Positions 2,353 through 11,759 of a stretch of 64,000 nt of DNA are shown one piece after another. A program made the position numbers and the translations under genes. The notes beneath the pieces were generated by a model. That model did no database searches. It was not told the origin of the DNA and saw only the letters and a list, made by a program, of their open reading frames with translations. The number at the start of each line of letters is the position of its first letter. Position 1 is the first letter of the stretch. The stretch is from a virus: the IMG/VR virus record IMGVR_UViG_3300030390_001877, positions 68,130 through 132,129 of that record; one strand, given 5' to 3'.

Positions 2353-3399
2353 TTAAGTAAGTTGGATAATTGCTTCTGGTTTAGTTGCAAAATATAGCTT
2401 TTTAGCTTGAATCTCAAGAGTATGAGATTCATCATCATCAGAAGTACGTTCGAAAGCAAACATCTCTTGTCCGCCTTTATTAGCGTAAGAAAGTTTTGAA
2501 GCTGGTCCGAAGTAACCGCGAAGAAGATCACGGCCACCACGAGGTAATGCGATACCTTGACCTGCACCTAGTACTGTAACCTCTGTACCATCTGCTTCTA
2601 GGAAAGTAGGGTTATACGCTAAGAAACGTACACCACGATGTTCGAAGAAGTCTGTAACACCCCAAGAGTAGTATGCACTTAGGTCGTCACGAAGAAGTTG
2701 CTTACCAGAGTTTTGGTATTGGTTGTAAACTTCACGGAATTTAGGGTTAGCAATGATTTCGTCAAATAGAGCGTAATCTAACCAGAAGTCAACACCTTGG
2801 ATAGCTGCACCAGATTTAATACCACCAGAGATTTTACGTTTAACTTCTGCAATTTTAGCATCTAAGTCTACAGAAGCATTACCAGTGTCTAAGTCTACAG
2901 TGTAATCCGCAGCTTTATTAAGGCTATATACTGAATACATATCTGTAGCACCTGCAACAGCACCTGTAGGTAGATCACCTTTCATAGCTTTGAAACGTAA
3001 GTATTCATCACGTTGGTCATGTGCTAGACGTAAGTCTTCAAGCTTAGTAGAACGTACATTAGCAAGAGTTTCAGCAGAATCTGCTTCACCAGCCATACGT
3101 TGACCTTGGATATCATATACGTCAATATAATCCATCTCTTTGTAGAACTTCAACAGCATTGCATATTGGTCTACTTCACGGTCTTTACCAACGCCGTGTA
3201 CTTTAGACTGAGCACCACCTTCTGACATCATATTAATTTGATTTTTAATACGGTCAAAGATGATAGAATCTTGAGAAGTAGTAGTAGTGTTGAATAAGCC
3301 TTGTGAGCGGATAAAACCAAACTGGTTATCAATAACGTTTACGGCGTTAGTCCAGTCGATAATACCATTAATGTTTGAAGGATCGTGAGTTAATGCCAT
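2353..3399 (-). CDS. Major capsid protein (lambda gpE-like family)
   Basis: 348 aa; order protease-decoration-capsid; followed by a strong terminator; highly biased codon use. Confidence 0.85.
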   Translation of the reverse strand: MALTHDPSNINGIIDWTNAVNVIDNQFGFIRSQGLFNTTTTSQDSIIFDRIKNQINMMSEGGAQSKVHGVGKDREVDQYAMLLKFYKEMDYIDVYDIQGQRMAGEADSAETLANVRSTKLEDLRLAHDQRDEYLRFKAMKGDLPTGAVAGATDMYSVYSLNKAADYTVDLDTGNASVDLDAKIAEVKRKISGGIKSGAAIQGVDFWLDYALFDEIIANPKFREVYNQYQNSGKQLLRDDLSAYYSWGVTDFFEHRGVRFLAYNPTFLEADGTEVTVLGAGQGIALPRGGRDLLRGYFGPASKLSYANKGGQEMFAFERTSDDDESHTLEIQAKKLYFATKPEAIIQLT

Positions 3400-3415
3400 T
3401 TTTTATTATTCCTTA

Positions 3416-3820
3416 TTATACTTGAGCTAATACTTGGATACCAGCATTAGCTAGTAATGCATCGTACACTGCTTGTTTCTCTACATCTGTATCTACATCA
3501 GTAGCGAAAGATAGTGATTTATCTGCCACTTGAGAAGGACCAGCCATTAATACTGTCATTTCAAAGTCACCACCAACAGTAGTGTCGTCGTTAGCTAGAG
3601 TGTCGATTAAAACAGCATTAGCATTAGCAGTTGTTGCAACAGCAACTAGAATGTACTTACCAGCAACAGAAGTTGATTCTAATACAGCACCAATTTCCAA
3701 ACCCTCTGCAGGAACAGTTACAACCACTTTACGGCGTGTATAACCTGTTGCAGGAGCGTATTCATGTTTAAGAACGTCACCAACTTTAGTAGGACGACTT
3801 GCAATAAGACCTGTAGCCAT
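3416..3820 (-). CDS. Head decoration protein
   Basis: 134 aa between protease and capsid; DVLKHEY...RRKVVV, GAVL and GP motifs typical of gpD-like decoration proteins. Confidence 0.75.
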   Translation of the reverse strand: MATGLIASRPTKVGDVLKHEYAPATGYTRRKVVVTVPAEGLEIGAVLESTSVAGKYILVAVATTANANAVLIDTLANDDTTVGGDFEMTVLMAGPSQVADKSLSFATDVDTDVEKQAVYDALLANAGIQVLAQV

Positions 3821-3844
3821 TATTATTTTTCCTTATTTATTTTA

Positions 3845-5302
3845 TTAAGAGTTTTTCTTGTGACGAGCTAATAACTTTGCCATAACAGCGTCTTGGTCTT
3901 TAGCAGTACTTGTTGGTTCAACTTCTGCTTCTGCATCAGCACCAATTTCTTCACCAAAAGAAGTTTTAAGTTCTTCTACTTTAGTGTTCATTTCTGCTTG
4001 CAATGCTTCTTTTTCTGAGTTAAACTCTTCCATCTTAGTAGATAAAGTTTTCTCTAATTCAGATACACTTGCAGATGCTTGCGAGATTAAACCGCTAACT
4101 AATTCTTTGTGAACTGTATCAACGTTAGAAGCTAGTAAGAATTCTAAAACATCTTCTTGAGAATCTTTAAGGAAAGCATGTTTCGATAATTCTTTATTAA
4201 GAGACTCTTTGTGAGCTAATGCTTCTTTCTTTTCGTACTCTGCAACTTTACTAGCTAATAGTTCTTTTTCTTCTTTCTCAGCTTGTAAACTTGCTAATAC
4301 TTCTTCTTGTGCAGCTAACTTAGCTTGTAATGCGCTAAGTTCTGTCTGGTCAACTGTAGGAGTTGCCTGAGCTTCTTTAGACATAGATTGTTCCTCTGTT
4401 GTCATATTTAAAGTTTCAACTCCTGACGGAGAATTACTATTTTTACCTTTCGGCTTTATTCCCAAGTATTCTTGGAATTCATCTTCTTCCATTATCTTAT
4501 CGATAAAACCAATCGCTAAAGCCTTTTCAGCTTTCATAACCTTAGCTTGGGTATCAATAACAGTCTGAACGTCAATGTTTCTCATAGATGCAACGTGGGA
4601 AGTAAATTTTTCATAAAGTGTATCTACACTCTCTTGGATATCTGAAAGGAAACCTTCTCGGAAAGAACCATCCTTATCATAAGGAACCTTCTCACTACCT
4701 GCTGTAATGAATGTTCTCTCAAAGCCTTCCTTTTCTAGGTGCTTACTGTCATTCATAAGAGAAACAACAACACCAACACTACCTACCTCTGCTTCAGGAT
4801 TAACAACTATCTCGTGACAAGCACTTAATAAACCGTAACCTGCGCTGGCAGCCATACCATCCACGTATCCAATCATCTTGATATTATTCTTATCTGCCAA
4901 TTCACGGAGTTTATTAGCAGAGTACATCATACGGTAGGCTTGCCCGCCACCTGAATTGACTTTCATAAGAACAGTAGAAACACCTTTTTCAACAAGTTCT
5001 TCCATATCTTCGATTAAACCTACGTAGCTGCAACCGCCGCACATAGCTTCCCAACCTGTTTTCTTATAAGTAGTAGGACCTTCTACACGAAGGGTTCCTA
5101 TACCGTTAGATAACAAAGTAGTTTCTTCATCAGATATGAAATCATCTTGGTCATCATCAAAGAAAGCTTCTTTTGCGTATGAGTGTAGTAATTCTCTGTT
5201 ATCAAGAACTTCTGCAATCTCACGAGCTTTTTCTTCGATGATGAATTGAGGTTTTTCTAGGAGTGATTTAGATAGACGAGGAAGTTTATGTTTCTTAGAC
5301 AT
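3845..5302 (-). CDS. Prohead protease (S49/SppA family) fused to a C-terminal scaffolding domain
   Basis: NSGGG, GMAASAGY (catalytic Ser) and VGSVGV motifs of S49 peptidases, then an acidic coiled-coil C-terminus. Confidence 0.9.
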   Translation of the reverse strand: MSKKHKLPRLSKSLLEKPQFIIEEKAREIAEVLDNRELLHSYAKEAFFDDDQDDFISDEETTLLSNGIGTLRVEGPTTYKKTGWEAMCGGCSYVGLIEDMEELVEKGVSTVLMKVNSGGGQAYRMMYSANKLRELADKNNIKMIGYVDGMAASAGYGLLSACHEIVVNPEAEVGSVGVVVSLMNDSKHLEKEGFERTFITAGSEKVPYDKDGSFREGFLSDIQESVDTLYEKFTSHVASMRNIDVQTVIDTQAKVMKAEKALAIGFIDKIMEEDEFQEYLGIKPKGKNSNSPSGVETLNMTTEEQSMSKEAQATPTVDQTELSALQAKLAAQEEVLASLQAEKEEKELLASKVAEYEKKEALAHKESLNKELSKHAFLKDSQEDVLEFLLASNVDTVHKELVSGLISQASASVSELEKTLSTKMEEFNSEKEALQAEMNTKVEELKTSFGEEIGADAEAEVEPTSTAKDQDAVMAKLLARHKKNS

Positions 5303-5333
5303 ATTCTTTCCTTCTTTCCATACTATATGTTAT

Positions 5334-5361
5334 ATTATAACACGTTTTTAAAATTATGCAA
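5334..5361 (-). promoter_or_regulatory. Promoter for protease/capsid genes
   Basis: TTGCAT-16 nt-TATAAT on the minus strand upstream of 5302. Confidence 0.6.
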
Positions 5362-5364
5362 CCC

Positions 5365-6906
5365 TTACGCATTTTCTGTATTTGTTGCACTATTTGAACC
5401 GCCTTGCTGGGAATTTCCAGTTCCACTAGATCCAAGCCCCTCTCCTGATTTTGAGTCTCCTTTGTCACCCATTTCTAAGTATTCAAGGAGTTCTTCTTGA
5501 GAAAGATCTTCCATATGTTCTGTATCGAATCCCATCATTTCGTGCATACGAATAATATTTTCTTTTGTAAGAGCAATACCTTTAACAGACTTACCACGCT
5601 GGATAAGTTTACCTGCTTCATCATAACTAATCTTATCGATATCACCAGCTACAATTCTAGGCATATCCTCTGGAGATAGGTTAAAGTCGTTCATAACGTT
5701 AATTAACTCTGGGATGAGGTCTTTGTTCAATACATCTTCGATGACTTTGATATCAGACTTAATGTAGTGCATGTGAATAGCGTTCTTAACTTCTGCACTG
5801 TTGTAACTAACACTACCTTCACCTGTGAGTGTATGTCCTGCACCCCATATATCAAATATAGCCTTCCTACGCTTCTGTATCATCTCCATAGGGTTGAACT
5901 GCCTACCACCACCCTCTAGGCCAACTAACCTTGTAGAGTACTCAGGAACAGTACTAGAACCCTCTTGCAAGTCACTTGGACGGATGATTGAACTTTGGTC
6001 ACCATTGTGGATGTTAGCTGCTTGAGATATTAATGACTGAACCATATAATACTCATCACTAGTTGGGTCAGAAGCCGCCTTATCAAGTATATCACTTGGA
6101 ATAGCTAACTCTATTATACCAGCTAAATCTTTACTAGCGCCATTAACTTCTAAGTCTTCTAATAGGATCTTTTCTTTCCAAGCTTTATAGCATGCTTTAA
6201 GAAGAGGATTACCAAAAGGTGTACTGTCAGTAGCGTTCTCTCCAAACAACATAAACTTCTTACGGGGGATACGTTTATAACCTTCACCTGTTAAGTCTGT
6301 CGGAGAGATGAAAAAGTTATTAGAGGTTTTATTTTGAAAGAATTGATTATCTTGGCGTAAAGCAATAATACGCCTACCACCTGCATAAATTTCAAAAGGA
6401 GTAGACTTATCTAAACTTAGTTGAGGTCTGTTGGCTATATCACTAACACGATACATACCTTCCCACTCACCTCTCTCAACTTTCCTATAAACCTTCTCTG
6501 CAATACTAAAACCTTTCTCCTTAAAAGTTTCTATATTACGTATAACCTGCATGTAAGTATTACTGTCTAGAGTATTTAAACTCCATTGCAAGAACCTAGC
6601 AGCTTTTACACTATCAGGGTTGTTCTTATTATATTTAATTTTCTGATTAGCGAATGCCGACTCTATCAAATTATAAGTTAATTTAATAACAGTAGCTATT
6701 GCATCGTCATTTTTCATAGCCTCGAAAGTTTTCATACTCTGAGGCCATTGTAGCTCGTAAGGTTGTAATCTATTAACAATATCTTGGTAAAAAGCAATAC
6801 CAGATGTACCTACACCTCTTCGTGGAGTAACAGGTTTCTTAGGAGAAGTATCACTACCTTCATTGTTATTTACATTCCCACGAGAAGCGTTTCTTTTCTT
6901 AGCCAA
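5365..6906 (-). CDS. Portal protein
   Basis: 513 aa, TTG start after GGAG; between terL and protease; PFGNPLLKACYKAW motif typical of DUF935-like portals. Confidence 0.85.
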   Translation of the reverse strand: MAKKRNASRGNVNNNEGSDTSPKKPVTPRRGVGTSGIAFYQDIVNRLQPYELQWPQSMKTFEAMKNDDAIATVIKLTYNLIESAFANQKIKYNKNNPDSVKAARFLQWSLNTLDSNTYMQVIRNIETFKEKGFSIAEKVYRKVERGEWEGMYRVSDIANRPQLSLDKSTPFEIYAGGRRIIALRQDNQFFQNKTSNNFFISPTDLTGEGYKRIPRKKFMLFGENATDSTPFGNPLLKACYKAWKEKILLEDLEVNGASKDLAGIIELAIPSDILDKAASDPTSDEYYMVQSLISQAANIHNGDQSSIIRPSDLQEGSSTVPEYSTRLVGLEGGGRQFNPMEMIQKRRKAIFDIWGAGHTLTGEGSVSYNSAEVKNAIHMHYIKSDIKVIEDVLNKDLIPELINVMNDFNLSPEDMPRIVAGDIDKISYDEAGKLIQRGKSVKGIALTKENIIRMHEMMGFDTEHMEDLSQEELLEYLEMGDKGDSKSGEGLGSSGTGNSQQGGSNSATNTENA

Positions 6907-7599: not shown

Positions 7600-9687
7600 T
7601 TAAAACAAACGTTTTGAAGATTGTTTGCCCATAGAGGATTTCATCTTAGAGTATTGTGTGTTGCCCGAGGATAATTGTGGGATGGCTACTGCTTTGTGGA
7701 TTTTGGAAGCGCTGAGGTAATTAAAAGCTGAAGCTACTGTATCTCCGAAATCATCCTTTTTAGTTGTAGTGGATCTTTCTCCATCAAAACCTTCAAGTTG
7801 TTTCATTATGTAATTATAAGTTTTCTCTGAGAAAGTATTCTTAGCTATTTTAATAAGTCCATTCTCTGCTGCTGTTGCGAAGGGGAGAAATTTAGTTAGC
7901 TTATTTTTATTGATAGGGCAAGGGTCTTTCTTGAAAATAAAACCGTGTTCATTGAAGAATTTAGCTTGTTGATTCCAAAGAGATTTTCCTGCGGCAGCAG
8001 GGTCCTGAGGCGCTACGATGTAAACTTCATCACCGTCATACTCTGCCTGTTTAATCATTGTATTATCCCTATCACCAGACCTCTTATATATCGCCCCTTG
8101 TATATCATCTACTTCATCGTAAAAATCTTCATGATATTCACCTGCTAAAACATAATAACCGTCATGAGTCTTATACATCTTGATACAAGTTGTTGGATCA
8201 GGGTTTTTCTGCGAAGTTGTCCTTTCGGAAGCCCCGAAATCGTAAGCCCTAACAGCAAAAGCTTTAGAAGGTATCTTATCTATTTCCTGTAACCACTCCC
8301 TCTTAAAATACTTAGTCCCGAAAGCCATTTCAGCCCAACAACCGTGTAGTAGTTGTGCCCTGTCAATATCATTAAGACCTTCTAAGAATGCGAGGTAGGA
8401 TGGATTAATTTCCATCATGATCGGATTGTCGTATATAGTACCACTAACAAAAGAAAAGGATAGTATCTTACCTTCCCATCTTTCCTTAGGAATTTCCAAT
8501 CTAGTACCTAACTCTTCTCGTGAATTACCCCATATATACTCACCTGCTTCTTGTACAAAGTATCTGACTACTCCATCTTTTTCTGGGTCAGGAAAACCTT
8601 CATCATCTAAGTACCATGAGATCATATCCTTTATCTCGTGCGAAGGAGAAGGGTTACAACTTATTACCATTCTTGAGAAGTGTTTAGAAGGGGATCTTAG
8701 TCGGGACATGAAGTACTCTATCTGTTCCCATTCGAATTGTGTCTATTGTTGTTCAAAGAAGTTCGTTACTCTTCTTCCGTCTATAAAGACTGCCTTATAT
8801 CACTATAAGAGTTCAGACTATATCATCATCTACGTGAGATGCTGTGCGCTTCCACCCACTTAGGTGTACAGGTTTCATAATCCTTTCTAAAGGATCGTTT
8901 ACCTTAGTCGTTGCACCTTCAAACTGATTACTCAGTAAGCTTGGCTCAGAATTGTCTTTCGTAAAAGAGTTTCTCTGAATTCACACAGTTATCGATATGT
9001 ATCGCTACATAAAGGGGCACACTGTTTACCCTCATCTATACCAACAAATGTAAACTCTTGTCCCTGAGCATCCATCTTTGACCTAGCTACGTTCTCTGCT
9101 TGCTGGTATTTTATTTTAGCACCATTAGGAAATACTACTTCCATCTTATGATCTCTTATTGCCTTAGGTTCAGAACCTTTAGGCATCTGTTCGTAAATTG
9201 CTCTGGCGTTAGGCCAAAGTCCCCCTAATAACTGCGGGTTTGTTCTACGGTACATGATGCAGTTTGTCTTACCGTCATCTAAAAGCATTAGAGGGAGGTG
9301 ATTTAGTATGGTACTTTTCCCAGATCCTGCCAATAAATCTCTCTGGGACAGTTTCGAGTTCGTTACACTCTTCCACAGTTTCCTGTGTTGTCGGATCATA
9401 TCTTCTACTTATAAAAGTAGCCCTACGTTTCGAATTCACTTGAATCCTACTCTCAAAATGAGATGACCTCTACACCCATGAATTTAATCATTCGGCTCGG
9501 TATTGGCATATGATATAACATATCACTTAGCTTCCACCGAATTAGCAGGGGAGTTTATGGTGTGACCACAGGAATTTTAAGCCCCACCTATTACTAGTAT
9601 TTGAGTATCAGAAGCTCTTTTCAACATAAGAGCTTGCTTCTTACTTGCAGGAGAGAAAAAGGGTTTCTTTCCTTTCTGTTTTGTCAT
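7600..9687 (-). CDS. terL: Terminase large subunit, spliced: join(9687..9580, 9330..9028, 8742..7600), 517 aa
   Basis: Exon 1 MTKQKGKKPFFSPASKKQALMLKRASDTQILVIGGA + exon 2 AGSGKS... rebuilds Walker A (GGAAGSGKS); exon 2 ...FVGIDEG + exon 3 TQFEWEQIEYFMSRLRS rebuilds Walker B; exon 3 carries the RNase H-like nuclease motifs (AYDFG, KKDDFGD). Confidence 0.93.
8743..9027 (-). mobile_element. Group I intron 2 in terL (285 nt, no ORF), inserted just after the Walker B DEG
   Basis: 5' exon ends in U (GAG GGU) and intron ends in G (AACAAUAG); P GAAUUCAGAGAAA, Q AAUUCUGAGCC, R GUGCAACGACUA, S GAUAUAGUCUG; P7 GACUA/UAGUC; P3 CUGUGUG/CGCACAG; splicing restores the frame. Confidence 0.93.
9331..9579 (-). 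mobile_element. Group I intron 1 in terL (249 nt, no ORF), inserted inside Walker A
   Basis: 5' exon ends GGG GCU and intron ends AUUUAUUG; P1 GGUGGGGCU/GGUCACACC with U.G at the splice site; P10 UCCUGU/GCAGGA; P AAUUCGGUGGAAG, Q AAUACCGAGCC, R GUAGAGGUCA, S AAGAUAUGAUCC. Confidence 0.92.
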
Positions 9688-10493
9688 TTTATAAAATCCT
9701 CGTGTTTTTCTTTAAATATTTTCAATGCTTCAGGTTGTCTACTGCCTTTGCAAAATCTGCTTATCATAGATTCTGCTATACCTCGTTCAGATGAAATAAA
9801 TTTCAAAGATTTTTTGTTTATTAATCTATCTTCTATAATATCAACAACATCATGTAGACCTAGTTTAGTTGTAGGATGTTTTCTTTTTATGAAATCTCCT
9901 TTCTTGAAACCTGTTATACTAGATAACCTTCTACCTGACAACCCATCCCATAGTGTATCTGGACTGGATACAGTTAAGCCTAGATTTTCACATATACATT
10001 TATACTCTAATCCTGCATTAAAAAGAAATCCTACATATTTCCATTCATACTTGGTAAGGGAACTCAAGGTCTTCTCTTTTCCATAACTTTCTGCATAATA
10101 TTTTATAGTATTAAACTCTGAGGTAACCCACTGTAAATTGTACCACATATTATTATCTTTTGTATTATCTATATGGTCTATTACTAAACAAGAATTTTCA
10201 TCAGGAGTGTCCACTAAAAAATGTAAAGCTACTAACCTGTGTACCCTCCTGTGTTTGTATTCCCTATTGCCATGGGACATAGCTACCTCTTTATAACCAT
10301 CCTTATCTGTTTTAGGTTTAAGTATACGTTCTCTTACTTTCTTAACACCTTCTATTCTATGGCGATTAACCCAAGGAGTCTCTCTTTTCAAACTCTTAAC
10401 TCTTCCATAATTACTTATCTGATATTTACCTTCAAAGTCTTGGATATCTTTCCATTCTTCCTTAACAGGGAATGCTATGTTATTCCAAATCAT
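9684..10493 (-). CDS. Free-standing HNH homing endonuclease (NUMOD4 + HNH, I-HmuI-like)
   Basis: WKDIQDFEGKYQISNYGRVKS (NUMOD4); VHRLVALHF...IDHIDNTKDNNMWYNLQWVT (HNH); stop codon overlaps the terL ATG (ATGA). Confidence 0.92.
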   Translation of the reverse strand: MIWNNIAFPVKEEWKDIQDFEGKYQISNYGRVKSLKRETPWVNRHRIEGVKKVRERILKPKTDKDGYKEVAMSHGNREYKHRRVHRLVALHFLVDTPDENSCLVIDHIDNTKDNNMWYNLQWVTSEFNTIKYYAESYGKEKTLSSLTKYEWKYVGFLFNAGLEYKCICENLGLTVSSPDTLWDGLSGRRLSSITGFKKGDFIKRKHPTTKLGLHDVVDIIEDRLINKKSLKFISSERGIAESMISRFCKGSRQPEALKIFKEKHEDFIK

Positions 10494-10659
10494 ATTATAA
10501 ATTCCTCACATTATAATCTCCTTCCTCAAATTAATAAAAAGGAAAAGAACCTATCTGAGGAATACTATAGATTCTCTTTTTCCACTCTCAGAAACCCTGT
10601 GATCAGCAGATGTCTCTCTTAGAAAGCGTCCTTCTCGAATTATCACTAATTCATCACAT

Positions 10660-10688
10660 ATCTTACCACAAAGAACACCCTCTGTCAA
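10660..10688 (-). promoter_or_regulatory. Sigma70-type promoter driving HNH-terL
   Basis: TTGACA-17 nt-TAAGAT with extended -10 TG. Confidence 0.75.
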
Positions 10689-11297
10689 GAATAGACTTCC
10701 TCATCAGAATGCTTCTCATAAAGAACACCAAGATCTTCCAGAAGTTCTTTCTCTAAAGGAGACATATAGTCATCTCCAACACTGCCTCTCACTACCTCAA
10801 GACTCTCTATAAAACGTTCAACCTCCTTCCAAGTAGCCCTCTTCCCAACAGCACTATCTTCATAACGACATTTGTTTCTCTTAAAAATTTTATTCACAGC
10901 ACACTCTCCTCTCTAAAACTCTTCAACTCTTCAACTTTCTACGAACATTCTTCTCAGCAGTACTACTCTTTGTATGGAAATTCTTTGTAGAAAGTTCTAT
11001 ATCTCTAGGGACATACACCCCTTCTACCATGATCATTTTTGGAAGTGTGTTTTCGTAATGATCCTTGTAATCTCGGAATCCTTTACCATACTCACTTTCT
11101 TGCCCAAGACCATTTACCAGAATAATGAAATCTTTATAACCGTAATCTTTTAAATAAGATTCTGCTTCCATAAAACCTTCATACCAAGAATCCCTCATCT
11201 CCCAAATTTTAACTCTAATAAAATCTATAACCACTATTATAAGGGAAATACTCGACACAATAACAATCACACATACTAAGATTTGCATACCTAACAT
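10685..11297 (-). CDS. Two hypothetical proteins (10685-10897; 10923-11297 with N-terminal TM helix)
   Basis: ORF track, each with a GGAG/GAGG RBS. Confidence 0.7.
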
Positions 11298-11324
11298 ATC
11301 ACTCTCCTCAAATAAAACACTAAA

Positions 11325-11759
11325 TCAAACTCTCCACTTATAAAAGCAACCCTTCCATAAGCATCGCATCTTTACCCAAGAATAATACACACACTTTTTC
11401 CAGAAGTCAACCTTTGAATCAGATAATATTTTCCAATAGATTCTATGTATAGAAGGTTTATCGTATGCAAAGATTGTATGGTTCAAACGATACATCTGCC
11501 TGAGAACGTCTAACACTAACGAAGCAAGATATGTTTCGCTGTCACCAGCAGGAGTTACATTACTGCATAAAGTAAGTCCCTTATTCCAACAATACCCTTT
11601 AGAAACATATAAACTTCCATCAGGAGATAACCTTGCTAGGATCATTCTTCTTCCTTTACAGGATAAGGTATACTCTTTTCCAGAATACTCTGGAAGATGA
11701 AAGAACATTTCTTCTGAGGTGGTACTGTCATACTTCATAAGAGCGCTATCATATTTCAT
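11325..11759 (-). CDS. Hypothetical protein, DUF1353-like but with degenerate motifs
   Basis: YVSKGYCWN...LASLVLDVL resembles the vpkGf.wDG...aslvHD pattern, with D->N and H->L changes. Confidence 0.4.
   Translation of the reverse strand: MKYDSALMKYDSTTSEEMFFHLPEYSGKEYTLSCKGRRMILARLSPDGSLYVSKGYCWNKGLTLCSNVTPAGDSETYLASLVLDVLRQMYRLNHTIFAYDKPSIHRIYWKILSDSKVDFWKKCVYYSWVKMRCLWKGCFYKWRV

Follow-up and report, generated by a model that had tools for sequence, protein, structure and literature searches.

A stretch of 64,000 nucleotides (nt) from the viral record IMGVR_UViG_3300030390_001877 (hereafter the window) carries on its minus strand a terL gene that is split by two group I introns and is preceded by a gene for an HNH nuclease. 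To judge by its sequence, the nuclease open reading frame (ORF) is a homing endonuclease gene that stands free and is of the I-HmuI type, with NUMOD4, HNH and C-terminal helix-turn-helix parts, and its nuclease activity is predicted on the same grounds. Comparison of presence and absence in related phages shows three predicted mobile elements that are loosely associated and do not form one unit. The reading preferred here, which I hold to be about evenly poised between right and wrong, is that the HNH protein is a homing enzyme that cuts terL probably near the DNA encoding the P-loop and spreads by repair of the cut, that intron 1 hitch-hikes on this process or shields the site, and that intron 2 stands outside the partnership.

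Anatomy of the nuclease-terL locus

The window represents bases 68130-132129 of a complete IMG/VR virus record of 132,129 base pairs (bp) with direct terminal repeats. The TerL proteins nearest to that of the window, at ~59% identity, come from marine myophages of Vibrio, Shewanella and Pseudoalteromonas (qdvp001 and Shewanella phage 1/4 among them), and a megablast of the region against GenBank phages returned short intron matches only and no close relative.

The nuclease gene (10493..9684, minus strand, as are all features of the locus) encodes 269 amino acids (aa) and was identified as a free-standing NUMOD4-HNH_3 gene of the I-HmuI type from Pfam, PHROG and an alignment with I-HmuI; a leader of 195 nt lies 5′ of it (10494..10688), contains its ribosome-binding site and starts at a promoter-like site. 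The first exon of terL (9687..9580; 36 aa), whose N-terminus is conserved in relatives, ends in ..ILVIGGA, the first half of the P-loop. Intron 1 (9579..9331), a group I intron of 249 nt supported by Rfam, homology and covariation, sits within the Walker A (P-loop) codons. It is followed by exon 2 (9330..9028; 101 aa), which was delimited by alignment with relatives and runs from AGSGKST to Walker B (..FVGIDEG), and by intron 2 (9027..8743), a group I intron of 285 nt recognised by Rfam RF00028 just after Walker B. Exon 3 (8742..7600; 380 aa) starts with TQFEWEQ, completes the ATPase domain and supplies the RNaseH-like nuclease domain (Pfam Terminase_6N and Terminase_6C), and from EW.QI on aligns with the TerL of phage 184E37.1, which has no intron. 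Since intronless relatives are unbroken at ..IGGA/AGSGKS.. (a slash marks the point of insertion here and below) and at ..DE..EW.Q.., both junctions are fixed; the 3′ end of intron 2 was placed by frame, terminal G and homologues.

Most of the anatomy described in an earlier note on this DNA was borne out: the TGA of the HNH gene (9686-9684) overlaps the terL ATG (9687-9685) as ATGA, the distance from the HNH stop to the insertion site of intron 1, put at about 105 nt, measures 104-105 nt, and both introns are indeed ORF-less, with nothing beyond exon read-through found in either. The note had further placed the HNH gene between the terL promoter and terL, of which the position directly 5′ of terL stands, while the promoter itself is a consensus match only, upstream of the HNH gene (TTGACA-17-TAAGAT at 10688..10660), and the number of sigma-70 consensus matches in the region is not above that of shuffled controls (18 vs 15.4 ± 3.5), giving no statistical support for a defined terL promoter.

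Among the domains of the HNH protein, NUMOD4 (PF07463) was matched above the cut-off at E 2.1e-17, with residues 13-35 aligning to the N-terminus of I-HmuI, and HNH_3 (PF13392) at 27.1 bits against a cut-off of 24.8 (E 3e-6); PHROG HNH endonuclease families were matched as well. The alignment with I-HmuI (PDB 1U3E) covers residues 13-189 at E 1.3e-18 and spans the NUMOD4 strands, the HNH motif (DH..N..N) and part of the C-terminal helix-turn-helix. Orthologues form ~30 clusters in metagenomes at 45-65% identity, and H107, N115, N119 and N128 are invariant across 23 of these orthologues together with many C-terminal positions, which points to a probably active enzyme with a conserved DNA-binding mode. 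Family, domain order and conserved catalytic residues are shared with I-HmuI, with I-HmuII and with I-BasI, the nicking enzymes of the SPO1 group; unlike these, which are encoded inside DNA-polymerase introns, the HNH gene of the window is free-standing beside terL, and its product is ~95 aa longer at the C-terminus.

A nuclease slot 5′ of terL

In all 14 orthologue contexts that were fetched, and additionally in L012 (compared loci are given as L numbers), the HNH gene lies directly 5′ of terL, and these loci represent at least four terL lineages. Their TerLs are 30-70% identical to that of the window and their upstream neighbours are unrelated; terL is therefore the only constant neighbour of the HNH family, for which at least 8 gains or losses are required on the TerL tree.

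Three unrelated nuclease families fill this slot in relatives, usually overlapping the terL start: NUMOD4-HNH (L012 and phage 184E37.1), GIY-YIG with helix-turn-helix modules (1.187.O, eugene 12A10 and L027/L028), and T5orf172/MUG113 with zinc-finger modules (qdvp001, R16F, VnaP, RYC, PH357, L015, L016 and ICP1). Shewanella phage 1/4 and L034/35 have a slot in which no nuclease was found by tblastn against the reference set combined with a Pfam search confined to the larger upstream ORFs, the procedure that defines the class without a nuclease; many of the compared loci are metagenomic fragments.

The clearest exchange was seen between L012 and L028, whose flanks are 95% identical: a cassette of a 103-aa ORF and the HNH gene is replaced by a GIY-YIG gene, with exact boundaries at the upstream ribosome-binding site and the terL ATG, and with both introns kept. 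A co-conversion tract was sought as a gradient of divergence beside the swapped cassette of this pair, and none was seen. A free-standing homing endonuclease gene is marked by a fixed place between conserved genes, where it is present in some genomes and absent from others, and by replacement with other nucleases; both marks are found here. The slot specificity in all contexts and the exact cassette swap thus support the proposal that the nuclease gene is free-standing, mobile and of homing type, and that it is tied specifically to the 5′ side of terL.

Two further observations concern this part of the genome. Phages 184E37.1 (L001) and eugene 12A10 (L024) have flanks that are 88-94% identical, while the nuclease (HNH vs GIY-YIG) and ~95% of terL are replaced; homology returns in the last ~80 nt of terL, so that a whole essential gene was swapped together with the neighbouring nuclease. 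With the flanks alike and the nuclease and terL different, the nuclease gene therefore lies at a boundary of genetic exchange. Gene content is also variable across relatives between a conserved 144-aa ORF (11759..11325) and terL. In the window this stretch (9688-11324) has the HNH gene along with two ORFs, one of 124 aa and membrane-type and one of 70 aa; in L012 it has the HNH gene with a 103-aa ORF, and in L028 nothing but the GIY-YIG gene.

Intron 1 and its occurrence in an unrelated terL

Against Rfam RF00028, intron 1 scored 40.1 bits, which is under the gathering score of 50 (local E 6.6e-9). It is 75% identical over 82% of its own length to the terL intron of Vibrio phage ICP1, which is spliced in vivo as seen by RNA sequencing (RNA-seq) and reverse-transcription polymerase chain reaction (RT-PCR) (PMC10448857). 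Compensatory changes occur in 25 of its 42 predicted pairs in an alignment of 12 sequences. The last 9 nt of exon 1 form P1 with the guide of the intron, the 5′ splice site being marked by a U-G pair, and the intron has a terminal G. P1 covaries with a synonymous exon change (A-U to G-C), such that exon GGA goes with guide GGTTCCAC and exon GGG with guide GGTCACAC; P10 covaries as well (U-A to A-U), where GCTGG in exon 2 goes with CCAGT, and GCAGG with CCTGT in the window and L114. Despite the sub-threshold Rfam score, the covariation, the P1 and P10 pairings and the homology to the spliced ICP1 intron indicate that intron 1 is a real group I intron.

The intron of L114 is near-identical to intron 1 (96.5% over 229 nt), while the TerL proteins of the two are only 30% identical. 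This patch of high identity comprises the last 9 nt of exon 1 and the 229 nt, and the flanking exons are otherwise unrelated. A second patch comprises the leader, which is 94.9% identical with identity beginning exactly at the -35 hexamer, and extends into the first 135 nt of the HNH gene at 89.6%; in the body of the HNH gene identity falls to 66%, and the two sequences of exon 2 are unrelated. With two separate patches between unrelated terLs, intron 1 therefore appears to have moved recently, and not as a contiguous block with the nuclease. Exact-word scans for the intron strain of the window and L114 gave L016 as the sole hit in IMG/VR, and two scans of JGI metagenome contigs gave none.

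As a side observation, the leader (10494-10688) has no long ORF and is closer to L114 than the HNH body is; a promoter or a regulatory element that moves along with the nuclease gene may lie in it.

P-loop interruption across HNH-family loci

The P-loop of TerL is interrupted in 13 of the 15 HNH-family loci. In the window, L012, L106-L110, L113, L114 and L117 the interruption is a group I intron, and these introns sit at four positions (GGA/AGSGKS, GGAA/GSGKS, ~GGAAG/SGKS and ..FGG/KS). L116 (3435-4424; 330 aa) and L111 (4375-4812; 146 aa) have probable inteins instead (GGAAG/C...GN/SGKS), and the P-loop of L047 (~2900-4290) seems to hold both an intron and a LAGLIDADG-type probable intein. 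These insertions are in-frame, start with Cys (Ala in L047) and end with Asn followed by Ser, and their removal restores GGAAG/SGKS. They are called probable because the assignment comes from anatomy only and sequence support is weak: Pfam recognised no intein in the P-loop insertions of L116 and L111, and the best PDB match was to an intein at E 0.022.

Among 71 de-duplicated loci, any upstream nuclease was associated with an interrupted P-loop (odds ratio 10.4, Fisher p 1.3e-5), an association that is not significant in phylogenetically independent pairs (p ~0.6, with too few informative pairs). Co-occurrence of the HNH gene with the introns, which the earlier note had named as a check, was scored here against interrupted P-loops and gave a divided answer. 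The raw association is positive (13/15 vs 21/56, odds ratio 10.8, p 0.001), but with relatedness allowed for it is not significant (8 independent pairs, ~2.6 concordant and 0 discordant, p ~0.25), in a tree-aware test that has too few informative pairs and low power.

The most economical inference is that the target of the HNH protein lies in the P-loop (Walker A) coding DNA, because terL is the sole shared neighbour of the family and the P-loop is interrupted in nearly all of its loci. A near-identical intron 1 in unrelated, HNH-linked terLs fits such a target.

A number of points weigh against this, beginning with the outcome of the tree-aware test. The P-loop is uninterrupted in one HNH-bearing terL lineage, represented by 184E37.1 and L112, and conversely Barba phages, L064, L077, L082, L087 and L037/38 have P-loop introns with no upstream nuclease detected. 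The P-loop is also known as a hot spot of intron and intein insertion irrespective of the genes around it. The likeness between the window and L114 consists of two separate patches, and L114 is a single 3.2-kb metagenomic contig. The cut site is proposed from sequence comparison, and the target could be elsewhere in terL. Furthermore, I-HmuI and I-HmuII cut intron-plus and intron-minus alleles alike (PMC3428280), so an intron need not protect against an enzyme of this kind. A DNA signature of a "resistant" P-loop was sought in intronless nuclease-bearing phages, in a nuclease-free phage and in the spliced junction of the window, and nothing decisive was found.

Intron 2 and mosaicism of terL

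Intron 2 scored 90.5 bits against Rfam RF00028 (gathering score 50, E 7e-22, match 9037..8793). Exon 2 ends in ..GGT, which places a U before the 5′ splice site, intron 2 ends in ..TAG, and the spliced frame matches that of intronless TerL. Homologues were found at the same site in L009, L012, L016, L107 and L117, and the 3′ part of intron 2 shares homology with a group I intron that encodes an HNH_3 protein and occupies the same Walker B site in other phages (L037/L038 ~4965-6000; also L101 ~5015-6000). Intron 2 looks like an independent ORF-less derivative of such an HNH-encoding mobile intron, with no specific tie to the upstream HNH gene.

Both introns are polymorphic, and both are found with all three nuclease families of the slot. 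Intron 2 is absent from the HNH-bearing loci L106, L108, L109, L113 and L114, each of which has a P-loop intron, and L106 is ~90% identical to L012 throughout but lacks exactly intron 2. The terL of the window is itself a mosaic: exon 2 and intron 1 are nearest to L016 (81-82% at the DNA level; for exon 2 alone 81% to L016 and 58-60% to L012/L027), and exon 3 is nearest to L012/L027 (72%), with the breakpoint near intron 2.

Proposed mechanism

In the preferred reading, the HNH gene would probably be transcribed together with terL, and the ATGA overlap would couple its translation to that of terL. In a mixed infection the HNH protein would nick or cut the terL of phages that lack the HNH gene, most likely in or beside the P-loop coding DNA, ~105 nt downstream of the HNH gene. 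Recombinational repair from the HNH-bearing genome, the presumed direction of transfer, would then copy the nuclease gene and variable lengths of adjoining terL into the victim. Intron 1 would be a separate, recently moved element that probably hitch-hikes on this repair, shields the site, or both. A free-standing endonuclease gene adjoining a gene with an ORF-less intron is what is seen here, and in collaborative homing the target of the nuclease is, by definition, also the insertion site of the intron (PMC3984707). On the preferred reading, HNH and intron 1 would be a loose form of collaborative homing and not a fixed unit.

A bolder version is put forward tentatively, as a possibility that I would sooner doubt than believe: the P-loop DNA of terL may be a contested site, where the HNH family hops among unrelated terLs, self-splicing interruptions confer immunity, and intron 1 moves on ~14 nt of shared sequence. 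The HNH gene would always land 5′ of terL, and in the genomes that carry it the P-loop sequence of ~25 nt would nearly always be broken by any self-splicing element available, be it introns at four or more positions, probable inteins, or in one case both. The ~14 nt shared around the site would imply nick-stimulated microhomology repair or reverse splicing and not classical homing.

Alternative explanations

In the earlier note a single nuclease was proposed to move its own gene together with both introns as a unit, with its cut at Walker A or Walker B. The three elements do lie within ~1.75 kb (9027-10688, and intron 2 in addition), so that joint transfer in a long co-conversion tract could happen, and L012, L107 and L117 likewise combine the HNH gene with both introns. 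This idea is nonetheless largely refuted by the patterns of presence and absence and has become very unlikely: intron 2 is missing from five HNH-bearing relatives with a P-loop intron, including L106, neither intron is lost on exchange of the HNH cassette for GIY-YIG, both occur with T5orf172 nucleases, intron 2 is related to a same-site intron that encodes its own HNH, and segments of the window have different nearest relatives (L016 for exon 2, L012 for exon 3). More serious, if still rather doubtful, is co-residence without cooperation, where the target of the HNH protein would not be an intron site at all (but, for example, exon 1, another segment of terL or an empty slot), the introns would be older residents that lost their own endonuclease genes, and the elements would gather here because terL is essential and conserved. 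Such nuclease turnover was raised as an alternative for ICP1 (Barth et al., PMC10448857). It would account for introns that are unchanged after the swap from HNH to GIY-YIG or that occur alongside T5orf172 nucleases, for the kinship of intron 2 with an HNH-encoding intron, for P-loop introns without an upstream nuclease and for the non-significant tree-aware test. It sits less well with the interruption of the P-loop in 13 of the 15 loci of the HNH family, by elements that differ in kind and in position, with a near-identical intron 1 in two unrelated terLs that both have the same HNH family, and with orthologues that keep conserved DNA-binding regions though the terL DNA shares little beyond motifs.

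The remaining alternatives give the nuclease a function other than homing. It could be a weapon or domesticated factor, directed against co-infecting phages or satellites or used for regulation as with CapR, with homing being secondary. Catalytic and C-terminal residues that are invariant among orthologues 45-65% identical indicate purifying selection, and nuclease domains of the ICP1 type have been domesticated (PMC10448857), but the window shows no satellite or defence context, and strict slot specificity together with cassette turnover is a homing signature; I regard this as unlikely. The idea that the HNH protein is a working part of the packaging machinery and not selfish is hardly credible. 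HK97 gp74 helps the terminase cut DNA, and in the window, too, the HNH gene sits just upstream of terL with its translation coupled to that of terL, while most close relatives have some nuclease in the slot. Packaging and selfish roles are not mutually exclusive (PMC10448857). However, nucleases of three unrelated folds replace one another in the slot, and none was found there in Shewanella phage 1/4 and L034/35; the protein is a 269-aa NUMOD4/HNH_3 enzyme resembling I-HmuI, and TerL retains its own nuclease domain. An HNH of the HK97 gp74 type was also considered as an assignment for the protein and rejected, there being no PF01844 match, a different nuclease family, and absence or replacement in close relatives.

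Relation to known systems

The closest known arrangement is that of Vibrio phage ICP1, where a T5orf172 nuclease gene adjoins the N-terminal exon of terL and the terL intron is ORF-less, an arrangement termed collaborative-homing-like by its authors (Barth, Dunham & Seed 2023, PMC10448857). In ICP1_2006_C, a 429-aa T5orf172/CapR ORF overlaps a 33-aa exon 1, followed by the intron homologous to intron 1 of the window. The architecture is thus the same and the intron homologous, whereas the nuclease is T5orf172/CapR in ICP1 and NUMOD4-HNH in the window, the window has a second intron after Walker B, and the TerLs are ~30% identical; splicing of the ICP1 intron was shown experimentally, while the introns of the window are known from sequence. 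The layout of nuclease and intron at terL is already known from ICP1, and to it the window contributes a case with an HNH and a case with two introns.

Cases of collaborative homing, as summarised in PMC3984707, are F-CphI with the psbA intron of cyanophage S-PM2, and the DNA-polymerase introns of T3, phiI and W31 (Zeng et al. 2009; Bonocora & Shub 2009). Cutting at the intron insertion site was shown in those systems, whereas the target of the window HNH is a proposal; in contrast to them, HNH genes and introns of the window type are demonstrably separable, and two introns are involved. In the T4 system of mobE and trans homing with I-TevIII, and for the seg and mob endonucleases, a free-standing HNH gene lies between conserved genes as in the window, and a free-standing HNH of the mobE type can carry a neighbouring ORF-less or defective intron by co-conversion (PMC2790892, PMC2988022); T4 belongs to another phage group, and its target is nrdB and not terL. 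HK97 gp74 resembles the window in having the HNH gene directly upstream of the terminase genes, but is a small PF01844 HNH and a conserved partner of the terminase, whereas the HNH of the window is of another subfamily and size, exchangeable, and dispensable in relatives.

Somewhat beyond the literature searched, as a pattern that is not proven, one HNH family appears to track interrupted P-loops across unrelated terLs, and one intron strain appears to be common to unrelated terLs. Near-isogenic pairs show the nuclease and each of the introns turning over independently. If the HNH protein cuts the P-loop DNA of rivals, this locus and its relatives would form a natural series in which one nuclease family is set against introns, inteins and resistant codon variants. 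Such a series at a single essential site could then serve to test self-splicing elements as immunity to homing endonucleases, and the spread of ORF-less introns.

Other mobile elements

Two more group I intron matches above the Rfam threshold were found in the same genome outside the window (C1:60890-62158 and C1:44646-44934), of which one is in the tape-measure gene and adjoins an HNH_3 ORF, and the other follows a family-A DNA polymerase ORF. In the HNH-bearing phage contig L110, a TnpB/IS605 OrfB-type gene (526-1632) lies ~2 kb upstream of the HNH-terL module.

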